Below, in pieces: positions 1 through 32,836 of a stretch of DNA of 64,000 nucleotides (positions are counted from its first letter, which is position 1; every line of letters begins with the position of its first letter). The translations under genes were made by a program, and so were the position numbers. The stretch lies in assembly GCA_000004985.1 (NCBI GenBank), contig GG738919.1; one strand, 5' to 3'. Under the pieces are notes generated by a model. The model was not told the DNA's origin and did not search any database. It saw nothing but the letters and a program-made list of their open reading frames with translations. The DNA is from Naegleria gruberi. Taxonomy: Eukaryota.

Positions 1-75
1 TAACGACTGAGAATGAAAAACAGCAAGTCATATGAGTACTTTAAACAGTTAGTATAAATGCAGAACTCTCAATAC

Positions 76-624
76 TTACATTATATCTCCTTCCTTCTTT
101 CCATAATCAATTTTGAGTGGGTTGGCATTGCTTTTGTGAGTTGAAGAGCTATAGACACTGAATTGACCATAATCATTAGCCCCAATTCCATACAATTCGT
201 CATTTCTAGTTGCAACAATGCTGTAAAATCCTCCACTCGATATCATTTTCACTGGTTTATCTTTGAGCTGATGTAAATAATAGACTGATCTTGTAGCAAA
301 TGAATCCAATGGTACAGTAGTAAGTCCCATATGAAAACACGTTCTATTAATTCCCATTGTGTAGAGTGAACCATCCGAGAGGAGAATGAGAAGAAAGTCT
401 GAACCAATTGATACTTGATCAATGTGTGATTCCAATGCTGAAAAGAAGACATCATAATCCTCGTTTCTGTAATTTCTACATTGGTTGGCAATATTGATTT
501 TTACAAAGTTAGGTTTCTCCCTATGAGTCAAAACTGGTGAATGATCAGGTGCAGTTTCTTGTAAATTCTCTGTCACCTTGTTAGTCAGATGTCTTCCAAG
601 AAGATATAACGTTGCTCCACTCAT
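76..624 (-). CDS. RCC1-like repeat protein, 182 aa. The ORF track 76..636 begins at TTG; the first ATG is at 624. Possibly the 3' exon(s) of a longer gene.
   Basis: RCC1-type repeat signatures GSDFLLILLSDGSLYTMG and SGGFYSIVATRNDELYGIGANDYGQ. Stop TAA at 76-78. An in-frame TAG lies just upstream of the TTG. Confidence 0.5.
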   Translation of the reverse strand: MSGATLYLLGRHLTNKVTENLQETAPDHSPVLTHREKPNFVKINIANQCRNYRNEDYDVFFSALESHIDQVSIGSDFLLILLSDGSLYTMGINRTCFHMGLTTVPLDSFATRSVYYLHQLKDKPVKMISSGGFYSIVATRNDELYGIGANDYGQFSVYSSSTHKSNANPLKIDYGKKEGDIM

Positions 625-1252
625 GATTCTCTTCAATTCTCTCTATTCTTGTTTTTTCCGGTTGTGAAAAGTGTGACAATTTTGATTATCTGAATAAATT
701 ATTATTACTAGTAATTCGCTATTAATTATAATAGTAGAAACCCAAAGATGAAGTATTGACAATCTTTTTGATTATTATTTGAATCCATTCTTCATCTTTG
801 GTTGACATTGAATTTGGTTAGTTTCCAAAAACCTCTTTGTGGAAAATTAAAAAGGCAACCCAGTGTTATGATGACAAGTAAAGATGTCTTCATCAATTAA
901 TGAAGAATTATTATTAATAATAATAATGCAATGTTATTATTCGGTTGAGAGAGGAATGTAGTGAATGAAAATTGTTTCATGATACTTTAATTTTGATTTT
1001 CCGAAGAATATCTAATATTGTTGTTGTAATTGTTAATGATGAGGAATTTAATAGCCAAAGAAGAACTATATCTTTAATATTAATAATCCAATCCAATATT
1101 CCAAATTATTCTAATGATGAAAGCTTCTTTGCTCTTTTTCTGGCTTGCAGATATTATGAGAGCATTTTTGCCATAGCAAACTTTGGTTGTAAAACGATGT
1201 AGTCAACGAATAATTAAAAAACTTGTTGAAAAAAAAATACGCAAAAGTCAAA

Positions 1253-1802
1253 ATGGTACGTACTGCAGTCACTCTCTTAAAAAATATTTACCTTCTCTTT
1301 TCTAATTAATACTTGCTTGGTATGAATTATTTACTTACTCTTGAACATATTATAGGCCACAACTAAGAAGAAGTGTAGAAAGATGAGAGGTCACGTCTCT
1401 CACGGTCACGGTCGTATCGGTAAGCACAGAAAGCACCCTGGTGGTCGTGGTATGGCTGGTGGTCAACACCATCACAGAATCTGGGTTGACAGATTCCATC
1501 CTGGTTATTTCGGTAAGATCGGTATCAGAAGATTCCACATGAATAAGAATCACTTCTTGACAAATTGTCTCAATGTTGACGAATTGTGGAAGGTTGCCGG
1601 ACAAGAAGTCTACCAACAAGCCAAGGAAGGTAAATTCGGTGGTAAGGCTGTCGTTATTGATGCTCACAAGGCTGGTTTCGACAAGATCATGGGTAGAGGT
1701 GACTTGCCAAAGATCCCAATCGTCGTCAGAGCTAGACTCTTCTCCAAGTCTGCTGAAGAAAAGATCAAGGCTATTGGTGGTGTCTGCGAACTCACTGCTT
1801 AA
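1253..1802 (+). CDS. RPL27A: 60S ribosomal protein L27a (uL15), join(1253..1255,1356..1802). The 100-nt intron 1256..1355 follows the ATG directly.
   Basis: [27 protein letters not shown] matches the L27a N-terminus. ATG|GTACGTAC donor and TATTATAG| acceptor. Exon 2 is in frame with the ORF 1383..1802. Confidence 0.85.
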
Positions 1803-1931
1803 ACTTCTTTCCAAACTATAAAAAAAATTATTTAAAATCATTATTCTTGTTGATTTTTGTTCATCTCCAAGAAATTCTAGCAAGTGTTTTACCAGTCAAT
1901 TTGGATATTGGAAGATTGAAAAAGGTTGAAT

Positions 1932-2711
1932 TTATTTTGACATGGCACTCCAATGTTTGTGAGTTTGGTTGATAATGTGCTTAGCATAGGCCTTATCTAA
2001 AACTGTGGTATTGAATCCAAAATGATTTTCAGGTTTTCCATCGGTAGTCTTGTACATTCTAAACCAATCAATGATATCATTAATCTTTCCCTTTGGAATA
2101 TCATAAATGTCCTGTAAATCTTCATCTGGTTGTTGTGTTGAGGTTTCAGATTCTGAAACAACTCTACCAATAACTTTCCAATCCATTTCACCTTCATCAA
2201 TCATTGCAAGAATTCCAAAAACTTTGATTTTATAAACTTCTCCCATTTCCAAAGCAACATCACTAATTTCCACAACATCAATTGGATCATTGTCACCTTG
2301 AACAGCAACAGTTGGTTGATAAACACCATCCTTAACTTGTCCAAAAGGAACATGAATTAATTTCTTTGGATCTTCCCAAGTTTGAGGAAGCATTCCGTAA
2401 TTGAAAGGAATTCCACCAGCATCAAGTCTATAAGTAAATTCTCTGAGTTTTCCCTTCTTTTCATCTTGAATTATTGGATTAAATTGCTCCTTTGTATTGA
2501 CTTCCATCTTTTTCAGAGTGTGCATTGGAATTTCATTAACAAAATAGTAATGATTAGCACTTGCTTGAAGTGGAATATCATGCCACGGAGAAATGAATGT
2601 ATTCTTATTGATGGATCGATACATGATTTTAAAGCCATGATTTCCGAGGGTTCCCTCCAAAACTTTAGAAATTGAAAGTTTGCCCATTTGCGAGCAAATT
2701 TGTGAAGCCAT
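1932..2711 (-). CDS. PPA1: Soluble inorganic pyrophosphatase (family I). First ATG at 2711; the ORF track starts at a TTG at 2726.
   Basis: Conserved PPase motifs: DPIDVVEISD, the EGEMDWKVIG region and the HFGF C-terminus. Stop TAA at 1932-1934. Confidence 0.9.
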   Translation of the reverse strand: MASQICSQMGKLSISKVLEGTLGNHGFKIMYRSINKNTFISPWHDIPLQASANHYYFVNEIPMHTLKKMEVNTKEQFNPIIQDEKKGKLREFTYRLDAGGIPFNYGMLPQTWEDPKKLIHVPFGQVKDGVYQPTVAVQGDNDPIDVVEISDVALEMGEVYKIKVFGILAMIDEGEMDWKVIGRVVSESETSTQQPDEDLQDIYDIPKGKINDIIDWFRMYKTTDGKPENHFGFNTTVLDKAYAKHIINQTHKHWSAMSK

Positions 2712-3016
2712 TTTTTTTTCAATCAATTTGGGAACTTTTAGAATTTTTTTATTTGAAAATTGAAATGTTATGAAATTAAATGTTTAATCATTAACATTAT
2801 TGAAATTTACAATTTTTTCATATGAAAAAACAAATAAATTAAAAAAATTGTTGTTTTTATGAAACTTAAAAATGGAAATTCTTAAATTTGGAAAAAGCGA
2901 AGGGTGTTTCTTTTTAATACTGATGATTACTGATGCCTAATTGTTTATGATATATCTCTCAACAATTGCCTTTGATTATTAGTTCTATCTCTTATCATTT
3001 CAAATCTCAAAAAGAA

Positions 3017-4290
3017 ATGCCACCTTTCAAACAATTAATCACCGAGCAGTTTCATCGACCTGCTAATCAGAACAACGACAATTGGAGTTTTTTTTCATTG
3101 TTAGAATCGAATATAAATTCATCTTCATATTCGAAATTTGATTTAATGGATACTAATGTTACACTTTCGAATTTGGATCCTATTCCTCAATCGATTGGAG
3201 CAATTACAATATCAAGTACATTTTTAGTATTATTTAATATCTTGATGATTGTTATTGCTTCGTCTTTTATTCGAACTAAAATACGAAAGGAAATGAAACG
3301 AAATCAAATTATAATGGTAGGAATGGTTTTTATTCTATCCATTGTTCAATGTATTGGAATACTTGGGAGGAATATTTATGATATCATTTCCATTATCATT
3401 AATAATCAATATAATACTTTCGTCCAAAATACCTATTCATCTGAATCTCAAGAATTCATTGACACTTTCGAATATCACAATTGCTCGATTACAACCACTC
3501 AAGCAGGCATCAAATTTTCCCATGTTGTAGCCATGCATCTAACAGGTTCAATTGAAGTTCTTTTCATTGTTGGAAATCTCATTACAATGGTTGTAATCAT
3601 GAGCTTTGTAGGACATGTCTTTCTAGAAACTGTCAAGATTGCAGGAAGTTTCGAAGAGGCAAACTCACGACTAACAAAACGACTCATGATTATCCAGAAT
3701 TCATTCACTATTTTTTTCTGCGTTTCATTTGGTTCGATTGTTGTGGCTATTGCAGTGCTTTTCTTTTTCATCAAGATTCACTTTATTGAGGATTATCAGT
3801 TTCTGCTATTTATGATTGGATATATTATTTACTTTTTGCAGATTGTCATTAATTTGGTCATTTCAATGGTAAGTTTAAAGTTTTCATTGGAGAAAAATTT
3901 ATTCGAAATATGAAGATTGTTGCTTTCAAGGTTTTGAAAACAATTAAAACAAGAGCAACTAAGACAAACAAACAACAATCACAAAGACCAATCATTAAGG
4001 TTATTACACTGCAGTTGGCTCTTGTTTTTTCTGCTCTGTCACAAATCATCGCGATCGGTTGTGCCACAGCTTTGGATGACTGGAGTTACATGACACTGTT
4101 CTATAATTTCATCAATTCTGCTGGAATTTTAACATTTGGAATTGTAACTGTTCTATTATATCAGCCAATATTTACAGAATCTGCAAGAGCAGTGAAAGAA
4201 TTGAATAATCAGAGTGAAACTTCTTCTGGAAGGAAAAAATCATTGTTTAAAAAAGCTCAAACAATTCCAACAGAAAATTCTAATGTTTGA
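3017..4290 (+). CDS. Multi-pass (about 7 TM) membrane protein, GPCR-like, join(3017..3868,3916..4290) with a 47-nt intron 3869..3915.
   Basis: The ORF 2966..3913 starts at TTG; the first ATG is at 3017. ATG|GTAAGT donor at 3869. Acceptor GAAG|ATT keeps the frame into ORF 3910..4290, and hydrophobic helices continue across the junction. Confidence 0.5.
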
Positions 4291-4373
4291 TTGAATTGAC
4301 CCCTTATTAATAAGTATATGAGTTAAATAACGTGAAAGAAGATATTTTGATTCAATAAGTTAATTTTATGTTT

Positions 4374-6104
4374 TTACTTAAGGTCAACTCCTTTATTGGA
4401 GTTTCTACCAACCTTGAACCTGTAAATAACATGGGCAATAATGAAACCGATAGAAATAATAAATAATGCAAAATTGAGAACTCCATAGAAAAGGAATGGA
4501 CCACTTGGTTTCCAATCATCGAATAAATATCCACCAACCTTTGTGGCCACTAAAATACCAGCAGCACCAAAGAGAGTAAAGATACCACTTACGCTACCTC
4601 TGACCTTACTTGGTGATTCAGCAGTGACAAGGATTTGAGAACAAATAATGACACCAATTTCACCAATACCAATCAATGCAATTGGTAAATAGACAAAACC
4701 ACCAGTGACATCAGTGAGGAAAGATAACATGGTATAACCAACACCTGAAATTGCAGAGACAATTGCCATAACAATCAATCTCGACATTTTTCTAACAAAA
4801 TCAGTCTTGAAATCATCCTCTTGTTCAGGTTGTTGTTCAACATCTTGATTCTTCTTTCTTCTAAATCTCAAGTCAGCAAAAATACCAACAAATGGAGCAG
4901 CAATGAGAGCAAAAGTTTGACAAATACCAGAAATAGTACCACCTCTAGCAGTAGCATCTGCCTTGGATGAATCATGAATGTCAATCATTTGTTGAGAGAC
5001 CCACAATGTAATAAAGGTAGTAATGAGAATAGAGTCACCTCTAGCAACGAAACCAGAAATGTAGGCAAGAATGAGAGATGGTCTCTTTGCTGGAGCAACA
5101 AATAAACCTTCCCAAATGATATTTTTGAATCTGATGAAGGATTTCTTAATGTTGAATCTTTCTTCATCATCCTCTTCTTCACAATCACTACTTTCAGCCA
5201 TTTCTCTTCTGGTTGCTTCACGTTCTTGTTTAGAGTCACAAATTGGGAAAATTCTTCCCTTGAAGAAGATCATTAAGGCACACATGGCAATAATACAGAA
5301 GAAGGCCATAATCATAAAGGCAATCATACCTGCTTGACCTGTTGAAATGGTTGGATCAGCACTTTGAATCCATAATGGAATCTTTAAACAAGCCAAAGCA
5401 GAGACAACAGCACCAAGACCAGATGCCAATCCCAACAAACCAGATGCTTTACCTCTATCCTTATTCTTGACATAGTCACCAACAATGGCAGTTAACATAC
5501 TACTTGTACTGGCAGCACCAATAGCAAAAATAATTCTGTAGATTATCAATTGCCAAATAGTTTCAGCAAATGTATAGAGGAACAATCCAATTCCCATAAA
5601 TAAGAAACCAATCATGTACACAAACTTTCTACCTCTCAAAATATCAGTCAGCACGCCCCAAATCAAGCCAAATGCCAAAATGCACAATTCATTGTAAAAC
5701 GACAAGTCACCAGCCAATTTACCTTGATCTTTTCTATTTACAGTACCTCTCAGATAAGCTTCGAAAACATAACTTGACATGGCATTAATAAATACGAACA
5801 TACTAAGCAAAATGACAACCAAAATATAGAAACAAGTAATATGAACCCACGTAATACCAGGTTTCAGTTCAATAAAACCCAAATATCTATCAGTTCGAAT
5901 ACAGCCACACAATAGTTTTGGTTTCTTTTTGGAAGGAGGACCGGTTGGAGAGGAAGGTTCGCTACCTGGTGATTGATAGGCAATATTATTCTGCACTTCT
6001 TGATTGTCATCTGTTTGATTGACAGAGGAAAGGCCAGCAAGAGGAGGAATTATAATTGCAGGTGATGAAGTTGAATCAGCAGTACTTTGATACGAATTTT
6101 CCAT
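4374..6104 (-). CDS. Major facilitator superfamily transporter, 12 predicted TM.
   Basis: MFS loop signature G-x-L-x-D-I-L-R-G-R-K, alternating hydrophobic helices. ATG verified at 6104..6102. Confidence 0.85.
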   Translation of the reverse strand: MENSYQSTADSTSSPAIIIPPLAGLSSVNQTDDNQEVQNNIAYQSPGSEPSSPTGPPSKKKPKLLCGCIRTDRYLGFIELKPGITWVHITCFYILVVILLSMFVFINAMSSYVFEAYLRGTVNRKDQGKLAGDLSFYNELCILAFGLIWGVLTDILRGRKFVYMIGFLFMGIGLFLYTFAETIWQLIIYRIIFAIGAASTSSMLTAIVGDYVKNKDRGKASGLLGLASGLGAVVSALACLKIPLWIQSADPTISTGQAGMIAFMIMAFFCIIAMCALMIFFKGRIFPICDSKQEREATRREMAESSDCEEEDDEERFNIKKSFIRFKNIIWEGLFVAPAKRPSLILAYISGFVARGDSILITTFITLWVSQQMIDIHDSSKADATARGGTISGICQTFALIAAPFVGIFADLRFRRKKNQDVEQQPEQEDDFKTDFVRKMSRLIVMAIVSAISGVGYTMLSFLTDVTGGFVYLPIALIGIGEIGVIICSQILVTAESPSKVRGSVSGIFTLFGAAGILVATKVGGYLFDDWKPSGPFLFYGVLNFALFIISIGFIIAHVIYRFKVGRNSNKGVDLK

Positions 6105-7085
6105 TTCTTCTTCTGTGTGCAGATGTTATATAAAATTGTTAGAAACAAACTAGTAACCTGAAACTCTTTAAAGTTTAAATAGTAGAGAGTTAATATAATA
6201 CGGATTGAACACAAATGTTTCCGATAATGTAGTACTCTTCAATCTATAATATGAATATATATTGATTGAACACTCCAATATTGTGTATTGTGTGTCCTTG
6301 TTCAAAGTTTATGAAAATGCCCAAAAGAGAGCCTTCTTGGAGGTGTGGTGTTCGGGTTTTTTGTTTGAAGAATTTTCTCGCCTCCAAACTTCTTCTCCAT
6401 CTCCTATCTTACGGAAAAGTGAAGAAGGGCAAATTTGCTCTGCAAACAATGTTGCTATTTGTTGAATTGGTCTCCTGAGTGTGGAGGTCAAACAACAATA
6501 ATATCTACTGTACAGTGGTGGTGGGCAAAGTTTGGCCGAGAGACTGAGGAATGTTCAATAAGCGTGGAAATGGAGCACATTGAAAAATGCTTGATATGGA
6601 CAATTGGTTGGCTCATTTAGATGAGGATGGAATGATCAGGAATGTGTAATGTGGAATTCATTGTTATTCATTGTTTGTGTGTGGAATGGTTGAGTAAATT
6701 GTTGATGTGAGTTGTTGTTGATCATGATGAATGAAAAAGATCTTGAAGAAAAGGATGAAAGCGCATTTTGTCTCGAGTAACAGTCCGGAAATGAGCGAAT
6801 CCGATCCAATCAAAGTCCAGTCAAGGAGTAACAGGACTAATTTGGTGAAAAGTACAGTAGATTGAAACTGTAAAGGAGACTTGGTTATATTAACATGTTT
6901 GTGGAAGGAATCATGATTACAATAATGTTGTAACCTTATCTACCTTAAACTTTTTCAAATGACAATAACGAATCAAACAAGATGAAGGAGTTTACCTTGT
7001 GGTAATACTTTGTTGGCACCTTAAAAGAGTTTTTAGGAATTAAATTGAACAATTCGGTACAAATAACAAGATTCCTTTTGAATTT

Positions 7086-7740
7086 TTATTCGCCCATATC
7101 CTTTCTGACACCTTCAGCTTGTTCTCTTTCTGCCAAATCAAATGGTCTTCCGTCCAGTTTCTTTAACGATGGTAATCTTCTCAATACTTCAATTCTCCAA
7201 TTTTCACCTGCATCCTTAGTATTCTTTTCCAATGGATTACCAGTCAGTAAAATTTCTTCCAAGTCAGGGAGATCTTTCAGTCTGTCAATTTCAGACCAAG
7301 AACTAATCTTGTTATTTCCACAATATAATACTTTGAGTTTCTTCAATTTTTCAACACCAGCTAACGATGTCAAGTTATTATAAGACAACCACAATTGTTC
7401 CAAAGTTGGTGCAACAGCGTCAAGATTTTCCAATCTCTTGATTTGATTTCTAGCCAGTGATAAAATTTCCAAAGATACCAATCCTTGCAAACCACCAATT
7501 CTGTCTATACAATTTGTTGAGAGAGCTAATCTTTTACAATTTTTCATTTGAGACACAGTAGTGTCCATCTTTTCAATTGGAGGAACCCATCCATATAATA
7601 ATACTTGTTCAGCTTCGGAAGCTTTTTGTCCACTCTTTTCTTCCCACGACTTTACAGCATCTCTCAAAAAGAAGACCTTTTATTCCGATTATTAAAATTC
7701 AACATTTGATCAATTTATTGTTCATTTCCAAACCTACCAT
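7086..7740 (-). CDS. DNAL1: Axonemal outer-arm dynein light chain 1 (LRR protein LC1). Probable join(7086..7676,7738..7740) with a roughly 61-nt intron right after the ATG. Coordinates +/-1.
   Basis: Strong identity to Chlamydomonas/human LC1 (ALSTNCIxxI..L..L..LSL.RN.IK...NLDAV..TLE.LW.SYN..., RLPSLKKLDG). The ORF track start is a TTG with an in-frame TAA upstream, so the real ATG must lie in an upstream exon. Candidate CAGG-ATG|GTAGGT ... AAAAG|GTC. Confidence 0.75.
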
Positions 7741-7919
7741 CCTGTTTGTATTTCCTCAGTTATTAATTATCCAAATTTACAGGCAAACCTGAATTGTATT
7801 TTTTTATTTTTAAAAACCAACTTTCCCATACAACCAAGTGATTTCCGTAGTGTACTAATTTTTGGCGCCAATCATACTATCCCTTTCCCTTTTATGAAAT
7901 ATTTTTTACTGATAATGTA

Positions 7920-8000
7920 GCAGACTTGGCCGAGTGGTTAAGGCGACAGACTTGAAATCTGTTGGGGAAACCTTCGTAGGTTCGAATCCTGCAGTCTGCG
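7920..8000 (+). tRNA. tRNA-Ser (anticodon TGA), class II with a long variable arm.
   Basis: Acceptor GCAGACT/AGTCTGC is perfect. D-loop GGCCGAGTGGTTAAGGC, anticodon loop CTTGAAA, T-arm GTAGGTTCGAATCCTGC. A T-run follows. Confidence 0.85.
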
Positions 8001-12279: not shown

Positions 12280-12432
12280 GGTCGTTGGTCTAGAGGAATG
12301 CAATTTTAGAAAAGGTAAAATGATTCTCCCATGCCGGGAATTGAACCCGGACCTCCTGGGTGAAAGCCAGGTATCCTAGCCATTGGACTACACGGGAATC
12401 TTATTCATAATGAAAATATTCCCTTAATGAAT
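12280..12432 (-). repeat. tRNA-Glu repeat unit including conserved flanks (about 35 nt upstream, about 25 nt downstream), copy 1.
   Basis: Upstream flank ..GGAATATTTTCATTATGAATAAGAT and downstream flank GAGAATCATTTTACCTTTTCTAA are shared with the other two copies. Confidence 0.7.
12326..12397 (-). tRNA. tRNA-Glu (anticodon TTC), copy 1 of 3.
   Basis: Reverse complement is TCCCGTGTAGTCCAATGGCTAGGATACCTGGCTTTCACCCAGGAGGTCCGGGTTCAATTCCCGGCATGGGAG, identical to the copies at 15889 and 32740. Confidence 0.9.
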
Positions 12433-15854: not shown

Positions 15855-15985
15855 TTCATGGAAGGAATATTTTCATAATGAACAAGATTCCCGTGTAGTC
15901 CAATGGCTAGGATACCTGGCTTTCACCCAGGAGGTCCGGGTTCAATTCCCGGCATGGGAGAATCATTTTTACCTTTTCCAACTAA
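15855..15985 (+). repeat. tRNA-Glu repeat unit with conserved flanks, copy 2. Inverted relative to copy 1, so the pair brackets the kinase gene.
   Basis: GGAATATTTTCATAATGAACAAGAT upstream, GAGAATCATTTTTACCTTTTCCAA downstream. Confidence 0.7.
15889..15960 (+). tRNA. tRNA-Glu (TTC), copy 2.
   Basis: Identical 72-nt tRNA. Acceptor TCCCGTG/CATGGGA with a G-T wobble, anticodon loop CTTTCAC. Downstream flank has a TTTTT run. Confidence 0.9.
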
Positions 15986-18212: not shown

Positions 18213-18485
18213 TTACTTAGTCTTGGTGAAACCAATGAGAGCAGCGTTTTCTCTGAAGCATTGTCTGCAAATGTTAAGACCGTACTTTCTGATCATACCC
18301 TTTCTGTTACCGCAAACCTTGCATCTTCTAGCACCCTTTGAGTTATTCTTTGGGTGAGTGAACCAGATATTTTCGTAGCCCACTAGATATTGATGGTAAA
18401 GAACAAGTTGTTATGTTGGTTGAATCATGATGGTGAATTGTTTTGTCAGAGGTAAATTACCAAGTTGTTTAAAATGATACGTACT
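18213..18485 (-). CDS. RPS29: 40S ribosomal protein S29, join(18213..18382,18485). A 102-nt intron 18383..18484 splits the start codon as A|TG.
   Basis: Exon 2 encodes (M)[55 protein letters not shown], matching S29. Exon 2 begins TG GGC with no ATG. Upstream is AAACA|GTACGTAT...ATATCTAG|TG, giving A+TG. Confidence 0.8.
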
Positions 18486-19090
18486 GTTTATGTGGAGTAG
18501 TTAAGAATTTTTTTTTCAACAAAATTTTAGAGAGTTAACCAAGATGCCAATATTTTACAACGAAAGTTTTAAGCAGAGAATCACCAGCTGATGAAAAAAA
18601 TTGTCTTATTGTTGTAGAGCAATCATGAGCCTTATCATCATCAAAAGGATCATTAACTTCTCTCCAATGATGAAGATATTCGTTGGGAGATTTATTATGA
18701 AAGCATATTATTAATAATTCTAATTTTCGGAGAATATCATCATTATTTTGAATGGTTATTCTCAAGAATTAGAAATATCTTCATAATGAAGAACGAACAA
18801 TAATTCCTACTAATTATTATTTAACCTAATTGTGTAGTTTTACATTGACTAAGAACCCTCTACTATTTTACTTCTCTTGTTGACGCGTTAATATAATTTT
18901 GTTGGAACAAAGGCTTTGAATATTATAAACTCATCAATTCTATATAGGAACCAACCTTCAGGAACCGTTATCTTATAGTAAAAACATCCAACTACGGATT
19001 AGAGCTAAACACTAATGTCCAATTGTCGAGATATAATGATAACCATTGATAGCACGTCGTCTCACTCAAATAAATTACGCAAATAACATC

Positions 19091-32705: not shown

Positions 32706-32836
32706 TTTATGAAAGGAATATTTTCATGATGAATAAGATTCCCGTGTAGTCCAATGGCTAGGATACCTGGCTTTCACCCAGGAGGTCCGGGTTCAATTCC
32801 CGGCATGGGAGAATCATTTTACCTTTTCTAAAAATA
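32706..32836 (+). repeat. tRNA-Glu repeat unit with conserved flanks, copy 3.
   Basis: Same flank conservation as copies 1 and 2. Confidence 0.7.
32740..32811 (+). tRNA. tRNA-Glu (TTC), copy 3.
   Basis: Identical 72-nt sequence with the same conserved flanks (GGAATATTTTCATGATGAATAAGAT / GAGAATCATTTTACCTTTTCTAA). Confidence 0.9.

Follow-up and report, generated by a model that had tools for sequence, protein, structure and literature searches.

Studies of gene structure have established that introns lying in phase 0 between codons 1 and 2, the start-codon introns, are enriched among ribosomal protein genes (Nielsen & Wernersson 2006, PMC1626468), the human ribosomal protein genes being those of Yoshihama et al. 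2002 as quoted there; Heterolobosea, and with them Naegleria, fall outside that survey. In other genes, the start codon itself is interrupted. For ribosomal protein L19, a split start codon is described in the microsporidia Nosema ceranae and Encephalitozoon cuniculi (PMC2685015, Fig. 1 legend), and vertebrate VAMP1 carries one divided as AT^G (bioRxiv 10.64898/2026.06.30.735536), the caret marking a splice junction here and below. On intron sliding, the short-distance migration of a splice site, the review by Rogozin et al. (2012, PMC3488318) sees good support for shifts of 1 bp only, and the introns of yeast ribosomal protein genes, in the account that PMC3488318 gives citing Parenteau et al. 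2011, are 5'-proximal with strong consensus signals. Our literature search found no relevant Naegleria-specific report on start-codon introns or intron signals.

Three genes in a 64-kb stretch of Naegleria gruberi DNA (the window) can be set beside these systems. In one of them, RPS29, which encodes cytosolic S29 (uS14), the AUG very probably exists only after removal of a 102-nt intron (A^TG), as judged from the genomic letters and from orthologous loci. Like a start-codon intron, this intron is found right at the ATG of a ribosomal protein that is short and lysine-rich, but it lies inside the codon, after base 1, and, being in phase 1, it falls outside the phase-0 class; RPL27A and DNAL1 are typical members of that class, with their ATG^GT arrangement and their short conserved proteins, one of them ribosomal. 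RPS29 has in common with L19 and VAMP1 an initiation codon made by splicing alone, exon 1 giving one or two coding bases, and a proneness to be missed by annotation tools, and it differs from them in gene and in lineage. The donor of RPS29 is orthologous and its acceptor displaced by 16 nt, counted along the mature mRNA, between close species, as in intron sliding; unlike the 1-bp cases, the shift is longer and runs mostly across untranslated sequence free of reading-frame constraint. RPS29 and RPL27A also recall yeast in having 5'-proximal introns in highly expressed ribosomal genes of an intron-poor genome, with a strong uniform donor, GTACGTA, whereas the branch-like matches in RPS29 are loose, unlike the yeast TACTAAC. 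Neither start-codon introns of ribosomal protein genes nor split start codons are new; RPS29 is a new instance and not a new kind, and the case leaves the understanding of splicing and translation unchanged.

Reading frame and predicted start codon of RPS29

The RPS29 reading frame occupies 18383..18213 on the minus strand of the window, where it reads (G)TG GGC TAC GAA AAT ATC TGG ... AAG TAA and encodes a product of 56 aa. This product scores 52.6 bits against Pfam PF00253 (Ribosomal_S14/S29e; cut-off 27 bits; E=3.6e-14), the match covering residues 8-54, and it has both sets of zinc-knuckle cysteines, CKVC and CRQC, that are a feature of S29e/uS14. A homology search returned 305 homologues at E<=1e-5, named S29, the closest of which, from a cryptomonad nucleomorph, is 73% identical. 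The homologues inspected are 56 aa long, or longer only by annotated C-terminal extensions, and start with MG, MA, MT or MS at the matching residue.

The frame has no usable ATG, and a bacterial-code ORF lister gives it a GTG start instead. As the first-pass annotation had noticed, the exon opens TG GGC TAC and the frame is closed upstream by an in-frame stop, which proved to be the TAA at 18413-18411, 30 nt before the frame start. The sole in-frame ATG upstream (18428-18426) ends at this same TAA (ATG ATT CAA CCA ACA TAA) and lies within the proposed intron. The next internal Met is residue 30; a start there would lose the first CxxC of the zinc knuckle and is therefore no alternative.

A donor 102 nt upstream with A as its last exonic base, and a Met-Gly created by splicing in agreement with the S29 N-terminus, had been proposed in that annotation, and both stand on closer reading. 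The donor is AAACA^GTACGTAT, where exon 1 closes with A at 18485 and the intron opens with G at 18484; the acceptor, TCTAG, has its last base at 18383 (...ATATCTAG at 18384-18383) and is followed by TGGGC. The proposed intron (18383..18484, minus strand; 102 nt, GT-AG, phase 1; GTACGTAT...CTCTGAC...CTTTACCATCAATATCTAG) would split the start codon after base 1, with A at 18485 on one side and TG at 18382-18381 on the other, in a frame shut upstream by the TAA and with the Met fixed by orthologues. Its GT donor with a consensus extension and its AG acceptor are those of an ordinary U2-type GT-AG intron. Excision would join a short, essentially non-coding exon 1, placed at a minimum of 18485..18506 on the minus strand (...TTCTTAACTACTCCACATAAACA^GT) and contributing the A at 18485 as its one coding base, to exon 2 (18213..18382, minus strand), which opens TG GGC and consists of TG, 55 codons and TAA. 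Removal of the 102 nt gives AAACATGGGC / AAACATGGGCTAC, that is M-G-Y-E-N-I-W, in a good initiation context, the predicted mRNA reading AAACA^UGGGC with A at -3 and G at +4. Across the predicted junction, 18485^18382, the spliced form would read ...CATAAACATGGGCTAC, and the unspliced form would carry CTAGTGGGC. Direct reading finds no ATG within ~115 nt upstream of the donor. Unspliced RPS29 RNA, having no usable in-frame AUG and a short upstream frame, would be unable to yield S29.

On both strands of the window, GTACGTA occurs at two loci only, the proposed donors of RPS29 and RPL27A, against a mean of 0.62 in shuffled sequences; a third listed match is the palindromic overlap at RPL27A. The RPS29 intron is free of AG save for its last two bases, the AG before that being the one at the exon-intron junction, so that splicing from this donor must take the AG before TG. 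The resulting 101-nt gap ranks 70th among the 6782 AG gaps of the window (top 1%). The branch-like matches are loose ones, CTGAC at ~60 nt and TTTAC (YTNAY) at ~16 nt from the acceptor. The intron matches no Rfam family at E<=1 and has no stable fold (z = +0.89), and it seemingly hosts no snoRNA or structured element on that account.

RPL27A, DNAL1 and a common upstream box

The window was compared with 12.7-kb loci of N. fowleri (L085) and N. lovaniensis (L086), both of which contain RPS29, DNAL1 and RPL27A. For RPL27A and DNAL1, introns directly after the start codon had been claimed at first pass, and the comparison gives both introns an identical placement in N. gruberi, N. fowleri and N. 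lovaniensis. The RPL27A start codon (1253..1255, plus strand) forms the last three bases of exon 1 and is followed at once by a phase-0 intron of 100 nt (1256..1355, plus strand; GTACGTAC...TTATAG) and by exon 2 (1356..1802, plus strand), which begins GCC ACA ACT AAG and has 148 codons and TAA. The spliced product is identical to the public model XP_002668579.1 (149 aa), which validates the GTACGTA donor of this gene. The public models of N. fowleri and N. lovaniensis are likewise 149 aa long, and their introns measure 105 and 85 nt. All three species read ...TTGTTGAAAAAAAA(A)TACG.CAAAA.TCAAA ATG^GT..., and then ...AG^GCC ACA AC. AAG AAG AA.

In DNAL1, encoding axonemal dynein light chain 1, the start codon at the end of exon 1 (7738..7740, minus strand) was placed by direct reading and by orthologues. 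A phase-0 intron of 61 nt follows directly (7677..7737, minus strand; GTAGGT...ATAAAAG), and exon 2 (7086..7676, minus strand) begins GTC TTC TTT TTG and has 196 codons and a stop, giving with the ATG a protein of 197 aa that starts MVFFLRDAVKSWEEK. The corresponding introns are 107 nt long in N. fowleri and 101 nt in N. lovaniensis, whose models are also of 197 aa; in each species ATG^GTAGGT or ATG^GTATGT is followed by ...AG^GT(C/G) TTC TT. TTG (A/C)GA GA., that is MVFFLRDAVK.

On the broader suggestion of a yeast-like 5' bias in intron placement, a small sample bears lightly, the five annotated or implied introns of the syntenic N. fowleri stretch. Three of the five lie at or beside a start codon, one falls near codon 134 of 579, and one near codon 376 of 984. 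A brute-force scan for ATG-adjacent donors with long frames was too noisy to give a frequency of start-codon introns.

The block of RPL27A, a pyrophosphatase-like gene, an MFS transporter gene and DNAL1 is syntenic in the three Naegleria (window 1-8000; 6000-12700 of L085 and L086). In its MFS transporter gene, an intron interrupts the frame near codon 134 in N. fowleri (75 nt, L085 7557-7631) and N. lovaniensis (58 nt, L086 7543-7600), and N. gruberi has a single unbroken frame of 576 codons (window 4374-6104, minus strand), which suggests that this intron was lost or gained within Naegleria. Elsewhere in the window, CAATG^GTAAGTTT (3866-3930, plus strand) stands close to where the 2966-3913 frame ends, with another frame of at least 120 codons beyond it; it is probably an internal intron of the 2966-3913 gene and not a start-codon intron. 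The distance between RPS29 and DNAL1 is ~1.2 kb in the two congeners and ~10 kb in N. gruberi, where tRNA-Ser, P4-ATPase, kinase and NHL-repeat genes come in between. In the window, RPS29 adjoins a gene for a 734-aa protein with 100% identity to an NCBI predicted protein of Naegleria gruberi from a 216-kb scaffold. The window also carries tRNA-Glu(UUC) three times, at 12325-12398 (minus strand), 15888-15961 (plus strand) and 32739-32812 (plus strand), besides tRNA-Ser(UGA), tRNA-Arg(UCU) and tRNA-Gly(GCC).

RPS29 and RPL27A have an upstream box in common. The exact 16-mer TTGTTGAAAAAAAAAT occurs twice in the window, each time on the coding strand: upstream of RPS29 (18507..18522, minus strand), ending 22 nt before the donor, and upstream of RPL27A (1223..1238, plus strand), ending 14 nt before the ATG. 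In a relaxed form, the box is found upstream of these two genes only, in the window as in the N. fowleri and N. lovaniensis loci. It belongs to an upstream architecture present at both genes in the three species, TTGTAAA followed by GGTT(G/A)AC and after it TTG(T)TGAAAAAAA(A)T(A/T)C, located at 1186-1238 (plus strand) and 18561-18507 (minus strand) of the window, at 4528-4590 and 12292-12235 of L085, and at 4636-4695 and 12142-12085 of L086. From the end of the final box to the ATG or donor there are 14-23 nt; relative to the donor, the box stands 18-23 nt upstream in both genes of all three species, which supports the proposed placement of RPS29 exon 1. The box is a candidate element, promoter or initiator, of ribosomal protein genes in Naegleria; the literature searched holds no description of it or of Naegleria ribosomal-protein promoter motifs.

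RPS29 in related species and competing explanations

The RPS29 genes of N. fowleri and N. lovaniensis have an unbroken ATG, reading ...AACAAC ATG GGC TAC GAA AAT ATC TGG TTC, and from this contiguous ATG they read MGYENIWFSHPK; the MGYENIW of these congeners is the N-terminus predicted for N. gruberi. By tblastn, the N. gruberi protein is 91% identical to that of N. fowleri and 89% identical to that of N. lovaniensis. Over the 56 codons, N. gruberi and N. fowleri differ by eight synonymous and five non-synonymous changes, a pattern consistent with a coding sequence under purifying selection. It is very unlikely, for this reason among others, that the window holds a decaying pseudogene while the functional RPS29 resides elsewhere in the genome. 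The start codon is not contiguous, the gene neighbourhood is unlike that of the two congeners, and the window covers only part of the N. gruberi genome, leaving room for a second copy with an intact ATG; but the 56-codon frame is intact at about 90% protein identity to both congeners, synonymous changes outnumber non-synonymous ones, the upstream boxes in common with RPL27A are conserved, the splice signals are coherent, and the protein collections hold no other N. gruberi S29.

Both congeners also have a short intron in RPS29, the 3' end of which lies 15 nt before the ATG. The N. fowleri intron reads AAG^GTTTGTGTCATTTT...CTGAC...CCAACAG^TGAAACAATAACAAC and that of N. lovaniensis AAG^GTTAGTGTCATTTT...CATCAG^TGAAACAAAGACAAC; in N. 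fowleri, the annotated exons of FDP41_005530 (18964-19064 and 19125-19230 of L082) flank exactly 60 nt of RPS29 intron, so that the annotation, though in a wrong frame, lends this intron independent support. In a three-way alignment, the N. gruberi donor, ACA^GTACGTATCATTTT, occupies the same columns as the donors of both relatives. The upstream boxes and the upstream exon align as well, the intron interiors diverge, the coding sequence is near-identical, and the acceptor is displaced. Exon 1 closes with A in N. gruberi and with G in the two relatives, and on the exon side the N. gruberi donor context, ACA^, departs from their AAG^. With donors aligned and acceptor displaced, the N. gruberi intron looks like the relatives' intron with a moved 3' boundary. 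By this alignment, the 5' intron of RPS29 is conserved among the three Naegleria, and the predicted N. gruberi acceptor is located 16 nt further along the mature mRNA.

Non-AUG initiation occurs in eukaryotes, and a GTG is found precisely at the position of the Met codon. Translation of S29 from this GUG (18383-18381), or from another near-cognate codon, with the mRNA unspliced here or spliced elsewhere, is nonetheless even less probable than a pseudogene: the GUG would stand in a poor context, with C at -3, behind an unspliced leader that carries an in-frame upstream ATG followed by TAA, and weak initiation would be unexpected for a highly expressed ribosomal protein. Against it, too, is a strong donor 102 nt upstream that is homologous to the relatives' donor, and the sole usable AG downstream of that donor precedes TG in such a way that its use automatically makes an AUG in good context. 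Least probable of all is a wrong base at 18383, introduced by sequencing or assembly, or a mutation private to the strain, in a gene whose true ATG is contiguous as in N. fowleri. Acrasis and both congeners do have such an ATG, and one G-to-A change would restore it; but with A at 18383 no AG acceptor would be left for the conserved donor ahead of the coding sequence, the leader would keep the in-frame upstream ATG, and it would be an odd coincidence that exon 1 ends in A, the base needed, in N. gruberi only. Pseudogene, GUG and base error, taken together, are unlikely explanations of the locus.

Splicing of an RPS29 intron that makes the AUG is thus the reading retained, and this intron is homologous to the one that both congeners carry in the 5' untranslated region. 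The most likely history is a downstream shift of the 3' splice site in the N. gruberi lineage, to an AG that had arisen directly before TG. Both splicing at these sites in vivo and the direction of the shift are what we infer from sequence comparison. The split state is regarded as derived because the ATG is contiguous in both congeners and in the S29 gene of Acrasis kona, the latter also indicating that a split start is not general to Heterolobosea. We are about evenly divided on a more specific scenario, according to which the N. gruberi state is recent: an ancestral 5' untranslated region intron would have lost its old acceptor and taken a new AG at the first base of the former ATG, with the A at the end of exon 1 compensating. 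The congeners' intron ends within the 5' untranslated region, so that intermediate states of such a boundary shift would be visible. A Willaertia magna locus, reached via the gene for the SRP receptor, contains none of S29, L27A and DNAL1 and thus provides no close outgroup for RPS29; the SRP receptor encoded in the window has 75% identity with the Naegleria fowleri protein and 63% with the one from Willaertia magna. A scan of metagenomes for relatives of S29 gave 80 loci, none above 63% identity and none from Naegleria.

State of annotation and meaning of the split start

The first-pass annotation held that naive ORF finding misses the true starts of all three genes, and the public record of N. 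gruberi bears this out. The RPL27A model on the present scaffold, XP_002670063.1, has 139 aa in place of 149 and starts at an internal Met that is Leu in N. fowleri and N. lovaniensis, and the DNAL1 model, XP_002670112.1, has 160 aa in place of 197 and starts MDTTV; both are truncated N-terminally because the intron after the ATG was missed. A second scaffold of 11.6 kb carries duplicate RPL27A and DNAL1 entries and is probably an allelic haplotig.

S29 is unannotated in N. gruberi, and its absence from the Naegleria protein sets queried is attributed to a start codon that only splicing would make. A collection of ~15 billion proteins lacks the exact S29 of both N. gruberi and N. fowleri, and contig-index look-ups of the exact 56-aa S29, the MFS transporter, the 734-aa neighbour and the 149-aa L27A returned no match. 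No gene is called at the N. lovaniensis RPS29 locus (L086 4782-4952), and the true N. fowleri S29 (L085 4683-4853) is unannotated. In N. fowleri, FDP41_005530 (68 aa, 'Secreted protein' in UniRef; VFQX01000044.1, L082 18964-19230, corresponding to L085 4507-4773) is a spurious frame that spans the 5' exon of RPS29, its real intron of 60 nt and some of the codons for S29. In Acrasis kona, the gene for S29 (L001 1501-1766, JAOPGA020000309.1) is annotated with 72 aa and an odd C-terminal tail. An acceptor 5 nt upstream (intron 1663-1704, not 1663-1709) yields ...GFQKFR and a stop, a family-like protein of 56 aa, and the annotated acceptor was probably mis-chosen.

The value of these observations is chiefly practical. 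A universal ribosomal protein stands unannotated, and comparative or completeness analyses may take gaps of this kind for lost genes; such gaps favour splice-aware start finding in intron-poor protists. The three-species comparison of RPS29 also supplies, on a small scale, a clean example in which the boundary of an intron moves with respect to the start codon. If the proposed history is true, it would be an unusually clear natural case of multi-base splice-site migration into a start codon. S29 synthesis in N. gruberi would then be strictly dependent on splicing, which could in principle act as a quality-control or regulatory step.
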